Below, in pieces: positions 14,088 to 22,716 of a stretch of DNA of 64,000 nt. The translations under genes were made by a program, and so were the position numbers. The DNA lies in NCBI GenBank assembly GCA_965223705.1, contig OZ245015.1, positions 2,304,001 to 2,368,000 on the forward strand, written 5' to 3'. The notes beneath the pieces are model-generated. The model worked only from the letters and a program-made list of their open reading frames with translations. It was not told where the DNA came from and searched no databases. Each line of letters opens with the position of its first letter. Positions within the stretch are counted from its first letter, which is position 1. This stretch comes from Myxococcota bacterium. Its GTDB lineage: Bacteria; Myxococcota_A; UBA9160; UBA6930.

Positions 14088-14624
14088 TTAGTCCGGGATT
14101 GCGTAAGCGCACACGCCCTTGTTGATCATCCGTACGACTGCGTTTTGGTGGTCGGGGTTGCTCGTGAAGTCGTTGTCCTGGAACTTCACCAGCACCTCGG
14201 GCATACCGCCCTGGAAGCCCGAGCGGATGATCAGACTCGAGGTTTCGTCGCAGAGCCAATTCGGCTCGGTGGAGTTGTTGAGACCCTTGAACCCCATGGT
14301 CGCAGTGCAGATGTGATTCTGCTTGATCGAGCTAAACGACTGATAGCTGAGAACTTTTTGACCGTACGGCGGGACGACAAACGAATCGTAGGCCACCGGG
14401 GTTTCCGTCTCGGTATTGATAATCGTCAGATTCGTTTGGACCGCGTAGTAGCCGGGATTGGTCACGATGCACTGACCCGTGCCGATGTAGTCAAGCTGCA
14501 ACGGGTGCGTGGCTAGTATGGGAGTCTGGAAAAAATACTCGGCCGATGCCGGCATTCCGAACAGGAACGCCGCTGCGAACAAAGCCGCTAAAAATCGCTT
14601 GCGCATATCTTTCGTCCAATTCAT
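14088..14624 (-). CDS. Secreted hypothetical protein, paralog 2 of the collagen locus
   Basis: Signal peptide MRKRFLAALFAAAFLFGMPASA; aligns with 15892-16392 (TP-L-T-L-L-YIG-QCI-N-G, L-IIN-T-T-VA, VP-GQ-VLSYQ, NH-C, IN-G); 4 Cys in the mature part; the homologous start is 14606. Confidence 0.8.
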   Translation of the reverse strand: MNWTKDMRKRFLAALFAAAFLFGMPASAEYFFQTPILATHPLQLDYIGTGQCIVTNPGYYAVQTNLTIINTETETPVAYDSFVVPPYGQKVLSYQSFSSIKQNHICTATMGFKGLNNSTEPNWLCDETSSLIIRSGFQGGMPEVLVKFQDNDFTSNPDHQNAVVRMINKGVCAYAIPD

Positions 14625-14729
14625 TGGGTCCTCCTTTCACCCTCCGCACGTAGTTGTATCACACCGGCAAAAAGCCGTGTAAGAAACCGATGACGTTTTG
14701 TGATAATTCGCCCTGCCCCGAGGGGGCAG
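14625..14729 (-). promoter_or_regulatory. Duplicated promoter/leader, copy 2, with GC palindromic operator
   Basis: TGGGTCCTCC, TCACCCTCC and CGTAGTTGTATCACACCG blocks match 16411-16452 at a constant offset of 1786; palindrome CTGCCCC-GAG-GGGGCAG at 14713-14729. Confidence 0.7.
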
Positions 14730-14788: not shown

Positions 14789-15382
14789 TCACGATGGACT
14801 CGGACGGCGCCCGAGGATCCAGGAGACGCACGACTTCCGGACGCCCCGGGTTATCGGGGTCACCTGGTGGAAGAGGTGCGAGGGAAAGACGACGACACTG
14901 CCCTGCCTGCGCGCCGGAGAGAGCTCGTAGGGATTGCCTTCAGCATCGGAGATCATGAGCAGCCCGCCCTCGTACGATTCCGGGTCGGAGAGGGAGAGAG
15001 TGCTACTCACGACGCGGGTCAGCCCCTGCTCCGAACCCGGGTCGACCGTATCATGATCGTCGTCCGCTGAATCGCGGTGCCACCCATAGAACTCGCCTTC
15101 ACCGTAACAGCCGTACTGAACGCCTTGGGAAACCTCGACTTCGAGCTGCCAATATTCACGATTCGCCATGGCGGCGTAGTGAGTCATCAAGCCGTTCACC
15201 CAGTGCCAGACGTCCCAGAACGCCACACTCGCGTCGCGAAGCTCGGTGTCGACGGTGTACCCGCTCTCGCGTCCGACGGTGCCCCGGGCGGCCTCCATGG
15301 CATCGCCCTCTTCGACGATCACGTCGCAGACTTTCGCGGGAATGACGCCGTCGAAGATGTGGTAGAGCGGGAGTTGACGCAT
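14789..15382 (-). CDS. 2OG-Fe(II) dioxygenase, prolyl-hydroxylase-like (PKHD/2OG-FeII_Oxy_3 type), no signal peptide
   Basis: YGWHRD (HxD), YEGG, GSVVVFPSHLFHQVTPITRGVRKS (distal His plus R-x-S 2OG binding). Confidence 0.9.
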   Translation of the reverse strand: MRQLPLYHIFDGVIPAKVCDVIVEEGDAMEAARGTVGRESGYTVDTELRDASVAFWDVWHWVNGLMTHYAAMANREYWQLEVEVSQGVQYGCYGEGEFYGWHRDSADDDHDTVDPGSEQGLTRVVSSTLSLSDPESYEGGLLMISDAEGNPYELSPARRQGSVVVFPSHLFHQVTPITRGVRKSCVSWILGRRPSPS

Positions 15383-15424: not shown

Positions 15425-15493
15425 TCGTTTCGCAGGCCGCGAAACGAAAACCGCCGGGGCGCCTTGCAGCAGCCCCGGCGGTCTTCGTTTCGC
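15425..15493 (-). terminator. Strong hairpin terminator/attenuator between the collagen gene and the oxygenase
   Basis: 22-nt arms 15439-15460 and 15472-15493 (1 mismatch); the minus strand reads GC stem then TTTTCGTTTC; alternative 9-bp pairing of 15425-15433 with 15439-15447. Confidence 0.75.
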
Positions 15494-15883
15494 CTATTCC
15501 GGGAACCCGGGTTCGCCGGGCGGGCCCGGAGGACCGGGCGGGCCGGGATCACCCGGGTCTCCCTTCGGACCCGGCGGACCAGCCGGGCCGGGGATCCCGG
15601 GATTTCCCGGGTCTCCCTTCGGCCCGGGGTCGCCCGGTAGTCCCGGCTTGCCGGGAAGGCCCGGCTTACCCGGCTGACCGGCCGGCACCTGGGGCCACCA
15701 CGCGTTGCCCGCGCGGGCCGGTTTGGAGGAAAGCGCAATCGCTGCGGAAACGATCGGCGTCACCCACATCGATCCGATCACGCCGGTGGCGAGAATCCCC
15801 GACACCTTGCGGCGCGTCATGCGCTGTTCGCCGGTCGCGTCTTCCTGCTTCAACTCGTCGACTCGGTGGTCTTTGTCACGCAT
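15494..15883 (-). CDS. Small exported collagen-like protein (Tat-like leader plus 20 Gly-X-Y triplets)
   Basis: TRRKV twin-Arg, hydrophobic stretch with WVTPIV, PARA-G cleavage-like site, then an uninterrupted [60 protein letters not shown]. Confidence 0.9.
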
Positions 15884-15891
15884 AGACCGAC

Positions 15892-16392
15892 CTACGCGTC
15901 ACATCGCGGGAAGATGCCCTGGTTGATCAAGTTCCCGAGACCGTCGGTACGGATCGGGTCATTCGTGTAGAGATTGTTCCAGAACTGCAGCCGAATTGGA
16001 GCGAGTGCCGAGGGCACCATGGGCACTTCGTAGGGCCCCGGGACGCAGTCGCCATTCGTCTCCGTGTTGTTCGTCTGCGGCGAGGCCACGCAGAAGTGAT
16101 TCACGAGCTGCGCGGTCAGTGCCTGGTAGGAGAGAACCGCTTGGCCATGGCCCGGGACGAGCACGTCGTCGCTGGCGACGACGGTGTTGGTGACCGCATT
16201 GATGATCGCCAAGTGGGTGGCAACCGGGCTTATGCCGCCGTTGTTCGCGATGCACTGTGAGATGCCGATGTAGTTCAAGGGGAGCACACCGGTAACCAGT
16301 GCAGGCGTCTCGTAGACGGTGTTCGTGGCCGCCGCCGACATTCCCATCAAGAGGAGCGCCGCACACGCGACGCCTGAGATTCGTTTGAGCAT
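15892..16392 (-). CDS. Secreted hypothetical protein, paralog 1 of the collagen locus
   Basis: Signal peptide [22 protein letters not shown]; beta-rich, 4 Cys in the mature part; paralog of 14088-14624; ends 8 bp before the collagen start. Confidence 0.8.
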
Positions 16393-16410: not shown

Positions 16411-16517
16411 TGGGTCCTCCCCTCACCCTCCCGGCGTAGTTGTATCACACCGCCTAAAGGCAGTGGGAGAAAGCCGTGTCATCTCAGCGGCGTTTTTGAG
16501 CGCCCCCCTAGGGGGGC
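16411..16517 (-). promoter_or_regulatory. Duplicated promoter/leader, copy 1, with perfect GC palindrome
   Basis: Same blocks as 14625-14666; the minus strand reads GGTGTGATACAACT (extended -10-like); 16-bp palindrome GCCCCCCTAGGGGGGC at 16502-16517. Confidence 0.7.
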
Positions 16518-19742: not shown

Positions 19743-20117
19743 TTACCAGGTGATTTTCTCGGGATCGCCCTTGTAGAGCGTTCGGACGAACGCGATCACT
19801 TTCCAGGCCTGGTCTTCGTCGATGATTTCCGCGAAGGCCGGCATCGCGGCCCGGCCTTCCATCAGTTGTTTGAGGAGGCTCTCGTCGCCCCCGTCACCTT
19901 GTTCCCAGCGATCGTCATTGATGCTCGGACCCATTCCGCCGCCGCCCGCAGCCCCGTGGCATGCGTAGCAGTTGAGGCGCTTGTAGAGCTTGGCCCCCTC
20001 CGCGATGGCTTCCTCGTTCCCGGTGTACGGATTCTTGCGCGGGGCTTCGGCCGCACCGGCGAGCGCGATGACGGACGCCGCGACGAGGAGGAGAAAGGGA
20101 AGCGGTCGCCGCATCAA
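19743..20117 (-). CDS. xoxG: Monoheme cytochrome c, XoxG-like electron acceptor
   Basis: Signal peptide, NPYTGNEEAIAEG, CYACHG heme motif, GGGMGP, distal Met in MPAF; third gene after xoxF-xoxJ. Confidence 0.75.
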   Translation of the reverse strand: MMRRPLPFLLLVAASVIALAGAAEAPRKNPYTGNEEAIAEGAKLYKRLNCYACHGAAGGGGMGPSINDDRWEQGDGGDESLLKQLMEGRAAMPAFAEIIDEDQAWKVIAFVRTLYKGDPEKITW

Positions 20118-20920
20118 CGGCCTCTCTCGAGGGTGGGGATGCCGAATCGTTCGAGGATCCCTGCGACGGCCTGCTGGCGGCTGCGGAGCACCTCGTCGAT
20201 CGCCCGGTGAAGGGCTTCGTCGGCGGGTCGCACCGCGATCGCCATGTCGTAGCGAAAGGGCAGTGTCGCTGTTTCCTCCGACGGAGGAACGAAACGCATC
20301 CGTAGCGGCTTGGGCTGATCGCGTCGGAAGAACCCCGCGATGGGGCCCCAGACGATCGCCACATCGACCTCCCCGCTTCCCACGGCGTCGACCAGCGCTC
20401 GAGGCGGACTGTCCGTCCCGTAGTCGCCGAACACGCTGTATCCCACCACGTTGTCGACAATCCCGCGGTCGGAGAGGGCGTGGGCGGGCGGGCTGTTCGC
20501 GTAGTCGTCGCCGATCAGATGCACGCCCACTCGGACGTCACGCAAGACGTCGGAATTCAGCGATTCCGGCTCAACTCCCGATCCTTCTCGCGAAAGAAAG
20601 ACGTACCCGGATCGGTAGTAGGGCCTCGTGGTGAGAACGCGATCGAGACCGGCTGGAACTCCCATGACCGCGTCGCAGTGCCCGTCGCGCAGCTGCCGTA
20701 AGAAGCCGCGTCGTTGCGGCCACCACAGGTAGGTGACCTCGCGGGATAGGCCCTCGCCCACGAGCTTCGCCAGCTCGTTCTCGAACCCTTGGGCTTTCCG
20801 GTTCGAATACGGCAGCCCGTTGGGATCGGCGCAGACCCTGAGCGGCTCGGCGTTCGCACTGTTCGTGAGCACCAAACACGCGGCAGCGAGCCACGCGCCG
20901 AGCGCTCCGGACCGACCCAC
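20114..20920 (-). CDS. xoxJ: XoxJ/MxaJ-type periplasmic binding protein
   Basis: LRVCADPNGLPYSN, GFENELA, WWPQRRGF, TTRPYYRSGYVF, VDVAIVWGP; adjacent to xoxF. Confidence 0.88.
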   Translation of the reverse strand: MGRSGALGAWLAAACLVLTNSANAEPLRVCADPNGLPYSNRKAQGFENELAKLVGEGLSREVTYLWWPQRRGFLRQLRDGHCDAVMGVPAGLDRVLTTRPYYRSGYVFLSREGSGVEPESLNSDVLRDVRVGVHLIGDDYANSPPAHALSDRGIVDNVVGYSVFGDYGTDSPPRALVDAVGSGEVDVAIVWGPIAGFFRRDQPKPLRMRFVPPSEETATLPFRYDMAIAVRPADEALHRAIDEVLRSRQQAVAGILERFGIPTLERGR

Positions 20921-20925
20921 CTCGT

Positions 20926-22716
20926 TTAGCGGCTGGCGGTAGTCAGCGCGTCGTCGAGCGCGAAGACGTACAGCGTGCCGCCCTTGGCCGTGTCTTTCGG
21001 GAGGTCGCCAAACGCGCCGATCGCCCCCAGGGCCGCGGTCGGGTCGTCGGTCGCGAGATCCGCGGCCACAACCAACCCGGACCAGCCGCCCACGCCCGAC
21101 AGCACGGCGACGTACTGCTTGCCGTCGGGTCCACGGTAGGTCATCGGCGCCGCGATGATTCCCGAGCCCGCCTTGAACTTCCAGAGTTCCTCGCCGCTGC
21201 GCGCATCCACGGCTTTGAACCAGCCGTCCATGGTCCCGTAGAAGACGACGTCACCAGCCGTCACCAGAGCGCCACTCCACGCGGCCCACTTCTCCTTGAT
21301 GCCCCACTTCTTGGTGCCGGTCGTAGCGTCCCAGGCCATGAATTCGCCGCGGTTTCCACCCGGGCCGGGGAACATCTTCACAATCGCACCCACATACGGG
21401 ACACCTGCGATGTAGGAGACCTCGGTTCCCTCGTAGTCCATGCAGATATTGTTGGTCGGCACGTAGAAGAGCTTCGTACGCGGTGAGTACGCCGAGGGCT
21501 GCTGGTCCTTCGCGCCCATTGCGCCGGGGCAGATGCCTTTCGTGTTGACGTCCTGCTTCGTGCGCTTTTCCGGGTTTTCGACGGGCACGCCCGTCGCGAG
21601 ATCCACCGATTTGGCCCAGTTCACCTCGGCGAATTTGTCGGCGCGGAGCACTTTGCCGTTGGTTCGATCGATCGCGTAGGCGAACCCGTTGCGATCGAAG
21701 TGAACGAGCGCCTTGTGGGTCTTTCCGTCGAGATCGAGATCGACGAGGATGTTTTCGTTGATGCCGTCGTAATCCCACGCGTCGTGGGGTGTCATTTGGT
21801 ACGCCCAACGCGCTTCGCCCGTGTCGGGGTTGCGCGCGAAGATCGACATCGACCACTTGTTCTCACCCGGACGCTGGTCCGGGTTCCAAGCGCCGGGATT
21901 GCCCGTGCCGTGATAGAAGAGATCGAGTTCTTCGTCGTAGCTGTACCAGCCCCAAGTGGTACCGCCGCCGCGCTTCCACTCGTCGCCCTTCCAGGTCGAT
22001 ACGCCGAGATCCTTGCCCTGGTGGGACGGATACGGCGACGCGAAGTCCGCTCCGATACCGACTTCGTCGTCGGGGCCGGTGCTGTATCGCCGCCAGATCT
22101 GCTTGCCGGTCTTGACGTCGTTCGCGGTCACGAAACCGCGCACGCCGAACTCACCGCCGCTGATGCCGGTGATCACCTTGTCGCGCACGACGAGAGGCAC
22201 CATGGTGATGGTTTGACCCTTCTTGTGGTCCCCCTGCTTGACGCGCCACACGACCTCACCGGTTTCGGCATCGAGAGCGACGGTGTGGGTGTCGAGCTGG
22301 TTGAAGAAGATTTTGCCGTCGGCGTAGGCCACGCCGCGGTTCACGACATCGCAGCACGCGATGGGGATGACGCTCTCATCTTGTTCCGGGACGTGCTTCC
22401 ACTTGAGTGCCGGGCCGGGCTTCGTGAGATCGAGCGCGAAGACGTGGTTCGGGAACGCGGTGACCAGATACATCGTGTCGTCGATGACCAGCGGCGCGCC
22501 TTCGTGCCCGCGCAGGACACCTGTCGACAGCGTCCAGGCCGCGCGAAGATTCTTGACGTTGTCGGCTTTGATGTCGGCGAGTTCACTGAAGCGCGTCAGT
22601 GCGTAGTCTTTTCCCGGGAGCGGCCATTCGCCTGCGCTGTCGGCGGTCGCGACGACCGGCGCGGTGACCATGCAGGCAGCGAAAAACACGACGAGGCACG
22701 AGAGCTTGCGTTCCAT
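20926..22716 (-). CDS. xoxF: PQQ-dependent methanol dehydrogenase, lanthanide-dependent XoxF type
   Basis: STGVLRGHEGAPL, vicinal CC (IACCDVVNRG), GISGGEFGVRG, GGGTTWGWYSYD, HDAWDYDGINE with the extra Asp (DYD, versus DYA in MxaF); no mxaI. Confidence 0.92.
   Translation of the reverse strand: MERKLSCLVVFFAACMVTAPVVATADSAGEWPLPGKDYALTRFSELADIKADNVKNLRAAWTLSTGVLRGHEGAPLVIDDTMYLVTAFPNHVFALDLTKPGPALKWKHVPEQDESVIPIACCDVVNRGVAYADGKIFFNQLDTHTVALDAETGEVVWRVKQGDHKKGQTITMVPLVVRDKVITGISGGEFGVRGFVTANDVKTGKQIWRRYSTGPDDEVGIGADFASPYPSHQGKDLGVSTWKGDEWKRGGGTTWGWYSYDEELDLFYHGTGNPGAWNPDQRPGENKWSMSIFARNPDTGEARWAYQMTPHDAWDYDGINENILVDLDLDGKTHKALVHFDRNGFAYAIDRTNGKVLRADKFAEVNWAKSVDLATGVPVENPEKRTKQDVNTKGICPGAMGAKDQQPSAYSPRTKLFYVPTNNICMDYEGTEVSYIAGVPYVGAIVKMFPGPGGNRGEFMAWDATTGTKKWGIKEKWAAWSGALVTAGDVVFYGTMDGWFKAVDARSGEELWKFKAGSGIIAAPMTYRGPDGKQYVAVLSGVGGWSGLVVAADLATDDPTAALGAIGAFGDLPKDTAKGGTLYVFALDDALTTASR

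Follow-up and report, generated by a model that had tools for sequence, protein, structure and literature searches.

The bacterium analysed here probably makes a hydroxyproline collagen from an export-tagged mini-collagen and an adjoining prolyl hydroxylase-like enzyme, as judged from the sequence and a structure model. The two genes lie on the minus strand of the window (the whole 64,000-nucleotide stretch of DNA that was analysed). We consider it likely that they form a two-gene substrate-enzyme cassette, in which the Y-position prolines of the collagen would be 4-hydroxylated before export, enabling a trimer to form without a helper; the activity, its position, the export route and the helix are what we infer. 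This reading draws on the anatomy of the genes, the fold and conserved residues of the enzyme, the recurrence of the gene pairing and a Y-position composition that tracks the type of enzyme nearby. The locus is a compact candidate for a native bacterial hydroxyproline collagen, and its features are listed in Table 1.

In the proposed pathway, the precursor would be made in the cytoplasm, and the oxygenase, with O2, Fe(II) and 2-oxoglutarate (2OG), would hydroxylate prolines of the unfolded tail, most likely at C4 of the Y-position Pro in X-Pro-Gly. The leader would export the product, probably by the Tat route, and would be cut off at the A-x-A site. As the tail has no trimerisation domain, hydroxyproline would be what holds the triple helix together, letting three 71-residue chains maintain a short helix. 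Imino-rich (GPO)n peptides need no trimerisation domain to fold once n exceeds 6 (PMC10765305). The biological role may be that of a surface, matrix or adhesion peptide.

Table 1. Features of the collagen-oxygenase locus (window coordinates).
Feature	Position	Strand	Remarks
Collagen precursor gene, 129 aa	15494..15883	-	leader plus 71-aa Pro-rich collagen tail
Predicted twin-arginine-like leader, residues 22-58	15710..15820	-	T-R-R, hydrophobic stretch, W-x-x-P-[IV]-V motif, A-x-A cut site
Gly-X-Y run, residues 69-128	15500..15679	-	20 triplets, 16 X-Pro-Gly sites, two KGD
22-bp hairpin directly after the collagen stop	15439..15493	-	inverted repeat
197-aa Fe(II)/2OG oxygenase, predicted prolyl-hydroxylase fold	14789..15382	-	PF13640, E = 5.9e-15
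Upstream 166-aa secreted-type beta-sandwich protein	15892..16392	-	stop 8 bases before the collagen start
Downstream 178-aa paralogue of the upstream protein	14088..14624	-	36% identical
62-nt element upstream of the first flanking gene	16411..16472	-	82% identical to 14625-14686
Second copy of the 62-nt element, upstream of the downstream paralogue	14625..14686	-	by similarity

Anatomy and composition of the collagen precursor

The initial annotation described 20 uninterrupted triplets with Pro at Y in 17 of them (the exceptions being GPK, GPA and GPK), four GPP triplets and a mature product of about 70 residues that is almost pure repeat. Our recount agreed with this description: the Gly-X-Y pattern is unbroken across residues 69-128, Y is occupied by 17 Pro, two Lys and one Ala, the four GPP triplets are present, and the predicted A-R-A cut at residue 58 would leave a chain of 71 residues. 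Ten residues precede the repeat, one follows it and the tail has no Cys, in keeping with the claim that it carries neither a trimerisation domain nor an anchor. Pro at X and Y together makes up 40% of the released chain (7 of 20 at X), a GPP-rich block is located at the end of the chain, and Thr is found at Y in 0 of 20 triplets. The Pfam Collagen profile (PF01391) matched the precursor with an E-value of 6.8e-11 and 42.2 bits, above the family cut-off of 27.2.

The Y-Pro bias had also been called animal-like. It is indeed high, but it exceeds the animal level, as the 38 animal collagen matches that were picked from a profile search with three precursors had a median Y-Pro of 0.50 and a maximum of 0.64. 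The binomial probability of at least 17 Pro in 20 Y positions was 3e-6 at the human fibrillar rate of 0.335 and 2e-11 at 0.16, the median of the Pro-rich bacterial controls described below, although both values overstate the significance because the triplets are not independent. Human collagens contain 33.5-42.2% Pro/Hyp, and Thr is the commonest bacterial Y residue, at 31.6% over all bacteria (PMC8968730). The K-G-D pairs highlighted in the initial annotation do occur twice in the tail, but they are uninformative on hydroxylation, since collagen-like proteins from bacteria, archaea and viruses are enriched in them as well (PMC11923368). The genome contains three collagens, with Y-Pro in 17 of 20 triplets (window), 10 of 25 and 4 of 25.

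All four Gly codons are used in the repeat (GGC 7, GGT 6, GGA 4 and GGG 3), so a DNA-repeat artefact is unlikely and the pattern seems to be kept at the protein level. The minus strand was taken as the coding strand because a leader is present and the start lies 8 bases past the stop of the upstream gene. The opposite strand of a G-X-P repeat also reads G-X-P, which gives a shadow at window positions 15500-15562 on the plus strand; this symmetry leads to false collagen calls in GC-rich genomes (survey loci L096 and L121). Contigs from four DNA runs (two samples from one study, possibly the source) cover the collagen gene, and none of them lists a difference in it.

Gene neighbourhood

The minus-strand order is 62-nt element, 166-aa gene, collagen, hairpin, oxygenase, second element and 178-aa paralogue, and the collagen-oxygenase pair looks as though it was placed inside a tandem duplication. 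The 62-nt element is a probable promoter/RBS region; no third copy was found in the genome by blastn, and a search for a sigma-70 promoter gave no match. Contigs of three of the four runs have one extra G after position 14625, close to where the downstream gene begins. The two flanking proteins are part of a family with five members in the genome; their model is a beta-sandwich, and they lie outside the conserved cassette, because they are absent from the related cassettes examined. A fold search with the flanking protein gave a best Z-score of 8.1 with an rmsd of 3.1 over 100 aligned residues (TM1070) and nothing pointing to a trimerisation partner, and an Atlas search returned only clusters without names.

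The oxygenase gene starts 111 bases downstream of the collagen gene, and this gap folds at -65.2 kcal/mol (z -6.1). The hairpin within it may be a terminator or an mRNA-stabilising stem, and it was not listed by a scan for consensus terminators. If leaky, it would yield more precursor than enzyme message; it could instead be a sign of separate transcription. A conserved precursor-enzyme hairpin was considered and rejected, as only the window and one metagenome locus (L148, z -3.3) had a strong one among 16 gaps.

Leader and export

The window leader appears to be a worn member of a leader family without a name. An HMM of 36 leaders from other genomes gave it the best score among the 60,326 six-frame segments of the genome (E = 0.0064, with the runner-up at 1.1), and a smaller HMM of 18 leaders again ranked it first, but with an E-value of 0.48. 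The Tat consensus is S/T-R-R-x-F-L-K, followed by a hydrophobic region and an A-x-A site. TRR, the hydrophobic region and ARA are present in the window leader; the F-L-K part is worn, with the RR lacking a following x-F-L-K (relatives have RRKVLK). None of the Tat signal models of Pfam and NCBIfam matched the precursor, and the NCBIfam leader models gave no match to the leader. Two TatC genes are present in the genome. Animal collagens made up most of the matches in the three-precursor profile search, and a leader regular expression found no leader-plus-collagen protein among the stored matches.

In RRE-dependent RiPP systems (PqqD/HPr-rel type), an RRE protein is linked to the precursor and binds its leader. 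PqqD has four matches in the genome, none of them inside the window. Two of these genes, at G000:C1:1529787-1533505 and 4508409-4512564, sit among nucleotidyltransferase-like, HPr-kinase-like and glycosyltransferase-like ORFs (neighbours assigned by eye), and such PqqD-containing gene sets are possible partners in trans. Additionally, an Atlas search with window 15494-15718 (residues 1-75) gave a match at a low score of 0.77 to a 163-aa cluster with PqqD in 95% and Collagen in 38%, hinting at RRE-fused collagen precursors.

Structure and conservation of the oxygenase

Apart from the oxygenase, the genome (4.56 Mb, 95% complete) has no PF13640 match, and the oxygenase gene adjoins the most Y-Pro-rich of the three collagens; the chance of such closeness was roughly 0.13%. 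No signal peptide is evident in the enzyme sequence. The structure model (pLDDT 89.9) was most similar to Pseudomonas putida PPHD (4iw3), with a Z-score of 20.0 and an rmsd of 3.7 over 180 aligned residues. Trichoplax PHD (6f0w; Z-score 19.3, rmsd 2.9, 176 residues), the algal P4H with bound (Ser-Pro)5 (3gze; 19.0, 2.8, 175 residues) and the viral collagen P4H (5c5t; 18.6, 2.4, 163 residues) followed, and PiuC reached a Z-score of 18.2, tied with several others. By sequence, the best solved matches were PiuC/PKHD-type enzymes (E = 3e-11), ahead of the Chlamydomonas P4H (8e-6). The NCBIfam equivalog models for PKHD-type PiuC/YbiX gave 46-69 bits against cut-offs of 143-399.

The iron triad H102-D104-H172 and the 2OG-binding R182 are present in the oxygenase and are conserved in its clade (H102, D104 and R182 in 20 of 20 sequences; H172 in 19). 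In an alignment to 2jig, Y99 and R123 coincide with the Tyr of the YEPHYD motif and the Arg of the GQRVVT motif of CrP4H, which we take to be Tyr140 and Arg161. R123 is kept in all 20 clade sequences, and the Y99 site is Tyr in 10, Phe in nine and His in one. A substrate Arg (R322 in PHD2, R161 in CrP4H) and Tyr (Y310 and Y140) are common to P4Hs, with Leu replacing Tyr in P3Hs (PMC4396695), and this Tyr contacts the substrate proline (PMC9676403). Y99 and R123 are accordingly listed here as predicted substrate contacts. The modelled fold and these residues fit a P4H without proving one. The animal C-P4H features that were looked for (dimerisation and PSB domains and a PDI partner) were not found, the enzyme being a 197-aa single domain.

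No close relative of the oxygenase was found in 40 relatives (one weak match had a stop) or in 400 genomes of the phylum, so it is not a housekeeping gene here; the phylum set gave five distant matches, none with a leader or collagen within 1.5 kb. In 243 genomes of the order to which the genome G041 belongs, close relatives occurred only in G041 and the genome G053, with a distant match in G319. Searches with alignment A4 yielded 0 confirmed of 71 metagenome and 33 viral pattern matches. Both enzyme trees are quick trees with midpoint roots.

Y-position composition and the neighbouring enzyme

We compared collagens with and without an oxygenase neighbour at all PF01391 loci in 69 genomes of the family of G041 and 121 genomes of the order of the window, reading about 7 kb on each side. 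There were 87 loci, of which five were dropped for having fewer than 10 clean triplets. Neighbours were detected with an HMM and four phmmer queries within about 7 kb, by which other 2OG families may be missed; many survey contigs were short, and two likely false frames (L096 and L121) were kept among the controls.

The 10 collagens beside the enzyme family (six loci) had a median Y-Pro of 0.43, with nine at 0.3 or higher, whereas the 84 collagens without the enzyme (76 loci) had a median of 0.02, with 10 at 0.3 or higher; the median of 37 Pro-rich controls was 0.16. Counted per locus with the window left out, the five positive loci ranged from 0.25 to 0.66 (median 0.41), compared with a median of 0.03 for the 76 control loci (p = 4e-4, which ignores kinship, as the five loci represent three lineages). 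About 11% of the controls reached the lowest lineage value of the positive set. The 41 controls with at least 12 kb read gave the same picture (median 0.02). Equal frequency of the Y-Pro bias away from an oxygenase had been named as grounds for abandoning the initial proposal of selection for hydroxylation, and the frequencies are not equal in this survey. The proposal gains support from this difference and from the predicted P4H fold and substrate residues of the neighbour.

Four of the five positive loci comprise large collagens beside a separate enzyme subclade. One collagen beside an enzyme (L046) has a low Y-Pro of 0.17. High Y-Pro without a detected neighbour was found at L115 (0.61), in the second collagen of the window genome (0.40) and in four collagens of the genome G061 (0.30-0.33), whose only PF13640 match is a fusion with a PLOD-type domain. 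For the G061 collagens and the second collagen of the window genome, an enzyme might act in trans. The score for a YadA anchor was weak in L045, and none was found in six other collagens tested from L046-L048.

Collagens beside lysyl-hydroxylase-type genes only have a different composition: Y-Lys is 0.26 and Y-Pro 0.07 at L064:6382-8433, and the respective values are 0.35 and 0.04 at L174:11279-12751, a locus that came from the PLOD search. These Lys-rich, Pro-poor Y positions are the mirror image of the window. Y-position composition tracks enzyme type, Y-Pro versus Y-Lys.

Related cassettes and collagen-modifying enzymes

The nearest homologue with gene context (52% identity) is at locus L003 of G041 and groups with the window enzyme with 99% SH-aLRT support in a quick tree. 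On either side of it is a collagen bearing the same leader; these two, with Y-Pro of 0.92 and 0.49 and interrupted repeats, are the only collagen genes found in G041. This genome has 43 further leader-type matches, and Pro was at most 0.10 in 12 of the 13 other tails examined. The L003 enzyme abuts a 646-aa fusion of GT25, GT_PLOD and 2OG domains (L003:4629-6569) that matches human LH3 (E = 6e-45) and COLGALT1 (1e-25). Lysyl hydroxylase, GT_PLOD and GT25 domains are linked to collagen in the relatives L003, L045, L046, L064, L168 and L174. A query with the PLOD fusion had no match in the genome of the window, and no linkage of PLOD and COLGALT was seen there.

A second fusion of COLGALT-like GT25, PLOD glycosyltransferase and lysyl-hydroxylase-like domains was observed at L168:8638-10629 (G061), with split versions at L045, L046, L064 and L174. 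Strong GT_PLOD matches (E of 1e-60 or near) occurred in six of the 243 genomes of the order of G041. The leader-family proteins at L083 and L093 (G061) carry long mucin-like TTAAP repeats followed by short Lys-rich collagen, and the PLOD fusion lies elsewhere in that genome.

In G053, a 77-aa leader protein with polyproline at its end precedes the close enzyme. Scanning metagenomes produced 26 loci, of which 21 hold close relatives, 19 of them with upstream DNA. We found a Pro-rich ORF directly upstream in 17 of these 19, with a full leader in 15; L145 and L146, which are nearly identical to each other, lack such an ORF. With several of the loci being near-duplicates, the number of independent types is perhaps six or seven. 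Some tails are polyproline and others extensin-like (SPPPP, YY), (Thr/Ser/Ala-Pro)n or (Pro-Ile)n, and all 19 cassette tails that were measured had Pro of 0.24-0.59. What is common to the enzyme family is a leader, any proline-rich tail and a P4H-fold enzyme, not collagen as such. Because these relatives pair the same leader, a Pro-rich tail and an oxygenase, the window can be regarded as the collagen version of a two-gene cassette. The Pandoraea members of the clade (L004 and L005) have no Pro-rich neighbour.

At L144, a GlcNAc-transferase of PF11397 (E = 4.6e-49) directly precedes an extensin-like precursor. We take PF11397 to be the Gnt1 family, which glycosylates hydroxyproline (on Skp1). 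Extensin-like precursors with SPPPP runs and YY motifs lie between this transferase and the oxygenase at L143:15-491 and L144:4526-4939. The other strand of L144 carries a PqqD, HPr-kinase-like and nucleotidyltransferase set, with PqqD two genes from the precursor. Weak O-fucosyltransferase-like neighbours were seen at L150, L160 and L166, and a conserved ORF of about 510 aa without a Pfam match lies downstream of Thr-Pro cassettes (L147:2299-3834 and L148:6020-7585). The Pandoraea homologue L004:433-1020 follows a tRNA-Lys (L004:130-205), and a frameshift seems to be present close to the start of the P. anapnoica copy (L005).

A broader proposal can be put forward tentatively, as a possibility that falls somewhat short of our confidence in the window itself. 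Bacteria may run dedicated two-gene cassettes for exported hydroxyproline polymers, with collagen-, extensin-, AGP- or polyproline-like tails behind one leader. The window would then be a minimal natural hydroxyproline collagen, a 20-triplet helix folding without a trimerisation domain, and relatives would add an animal-style kit (P4H, lysyl hydroxylase and COLGALT- and PLOD-type glycosyltransferases), with Y composition tracking the enzymes.

Alternative explanations

Several observations count against the two-gene cassette. PiuC-type enzymes are the best sequence matches and PiuC ties structurally; a very strong hairpin separates the genes, with a comparable one in one of 15 other gaps (L148); some close enzymes have no Pro-rich neighbour (Pandoraea L004 and L005; L145/L146); Y-Pro is high in several collagens with no neighbour detected (L115, the second collagen of the window genome, G061) and low in one beside the enzyme (L046); the leader is worn; and the P4H Tyr is Phe in nine of 20 sequences and His in one. 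The positive set of the survey, moreover, covers about three lineages besides the window, and some of the metagenome loci duplicate one another closely. The enzyme might hydroxylate the tail and the product still be a single polyproline-II chain without a triple helix, its hydroxyprolines serving as a glycosylation handle for transferases in trans. Such a chain would suit the mostly non-collagen tails of the cassettes, the glycosyltransferase genes beside several of them (PF11397 at L144; the weak O-fucosyltransferase matches), the interrupted repeats of L003 and a window tail without a trimerisation domain. It would, however, have no need of Gly at every third residue, which is unbroken over 20 triplets of mixed codons. 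The window cassette has no glycosyltransferase, neither PF11397 (searched without a positive control) nor the PLOD fusion was found in the 95% complete genome, and (GPO)n peptides of sufficient length fold unaided, as noted above. We regard the single chain as unlikely.

A shade less probable again is that Y-Pro was selected for the unmodified imino-acid stability of a very short helix, with the oxygenase being a passenger or having another target (PiuC-like or PPHD-like). The separating hairpin, the PiuC-type matches, the stand-alone relatives in Pandoraea and the high Y-Pro controls such as L115 are what one would expect of a passenger. An enzyme of that kind is hard to reconcile with the Pro-rich ORF that precedes 17 of the 19 readable close relatives, with the division of Y-Pro and Y-Lys by enzyme type, or with the lack of close relatives in the 40 relatives and 400 phylum genomes, which argues against a housekeeping role here. 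A spurious ORF, produced by GC-rich low-complexity sequence or by shadowing a gene on the plus strand, is largely refuted and would be very surprising. G-X-P repeats do read on both strands, and the controls L096 and L121 look like false frames, but the window ORF has a family leader, close spacing to the upstream stop and all four Gly codons, and same-leader collagens stand beside the orthologous enzyme in L003. The substrate-enzyme cassette is the reading we prefer.

Comparison with known systems

The predicted cassette resembles animal collagen P4H (the alpha2beta2 C-P4H acting on X-Pro-Gly) in its Y-Pro-rich Gly-X-Y substrate, in the P4H fold of its enzyme and in the presence there of the Tyr and Arg for the substrate, and the LH3-like and COLGALT1-like domains of L003 recall animal LH3/PLOD and COLGALT1, although there they lie in one protein. 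Unlike animal C-P4H, the window enzyme is a single domain without a PSB domain or PDI partner; a cytoplasmic enzyme and a Tat-like leader would take the place of ER processing, and there is no C-propeptide. Identity to solved P4Hs was at most 25% in the structural alignments. The small, monomer-sized enzyme resembles the algal and plant P4Hs (CrP4H-1; extensins and AGPs) and PBCV-1 vCPH, the algal P4H being the best sequence match outside PiuC and both showing the high Z-scores given above. Additionally, the SPPPP and YY, polyproline and (T/S/A)P tails of sister cassettes are like plant hydroxyproline-rich glycoproteins. The window differs from the algal and viral systems in being a bacterial gene pair with an RR leader and in having Arg (R182) at the 2OG-binding position, which is Lys in algal and collagen P4Hs.

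Among bacteria, Bacillus anthracis P4H hydroxylates (PPG)n in vitro with a preference for Y (PMC8968730). The window enzyme is likewise a bacterial enzyme of the P4H kind proposed for Gly-X-Pro, but here the enzyme gene lies next to that of its putative substrate. According to reviews, the majority of bacteria are unable to produce hydroxyproline collagen and have Thr at Y instead (PMC8968730, PMC11923368). Scl1/Scl2, BclA and Lcl have Thr or charged residues at Y, favour X-Pro over Y-Pro and carry V or C-terminal domains and anchors, unlike the window collagen with its 17 of 20 Y-Pro and no flanking domain; the NCBIfam Scl models gave it 25-27 bits against cut-offs of 325-400. PPHD (the EF-Tu prolyl hydroxylase) and PiuC/YbiX provide the top fold and sequence matches, respectively, yet the window enzyme falls below their NCBIfam cut-offs (69 bits versus 143 or more), is patchy, was not found in relatives and is tied to Pro-rich precursors.

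For collagen-like proteins, Iyer et al. (2010) predicted hydroxylation by 2OG oxygenases of other enzyme families encoded alongside them (PMC2938197); the accessible text of that report describes no P4H-fold enzyme, leader or Y-Pro bias in those operons. A literature search found no description of a leader-tail-P4H cassette, in a body of texts that did not cover supplements (that of Iyer et al. may list such operons) and missed most subscription papers. The proposed chemistry and the fold are as in animal, algal and viral P4Hs. With two genes and a size suited to E. coli, the locus offers a way to ask whether bacterial collagen is hydroxylated by the bacterium that encodes it, and it would also put to the test the bacterial roots of collagen modification proposed in 2010. 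The enzyme, if it is active, would be a 197-aa single-domain P4H matched to Gly-X-Pro, which would be useful for recombinant collagen, and the cassettes as a wider family would be the bacterial equivalent of the hydroxyproline-rich proteins of plants.

Additional observations

Another member of the flanking-protein family was found directly downstream of a conventional Thr-at-Y collagen gene (G000:C1:1863787-1866715), which is the second meeting of this family with collagen in the genome. A SecB-like gene lies beside the large-collagen loci L047, L048, L051 and L174 (confirmed by Pfam at L047 and L174), and two different 2OG oxygenases occur in tandem at L047, L048 and L051. Elsewhere in the window, positions 19743-22716 on the minus strand encode a PQQ-dependent dehydrogenase (PF01011), followed by an apparent substrate-binding protein and a cytochrome c, an arrangement that we take to resemble a methanol dehydrogenase cluster.
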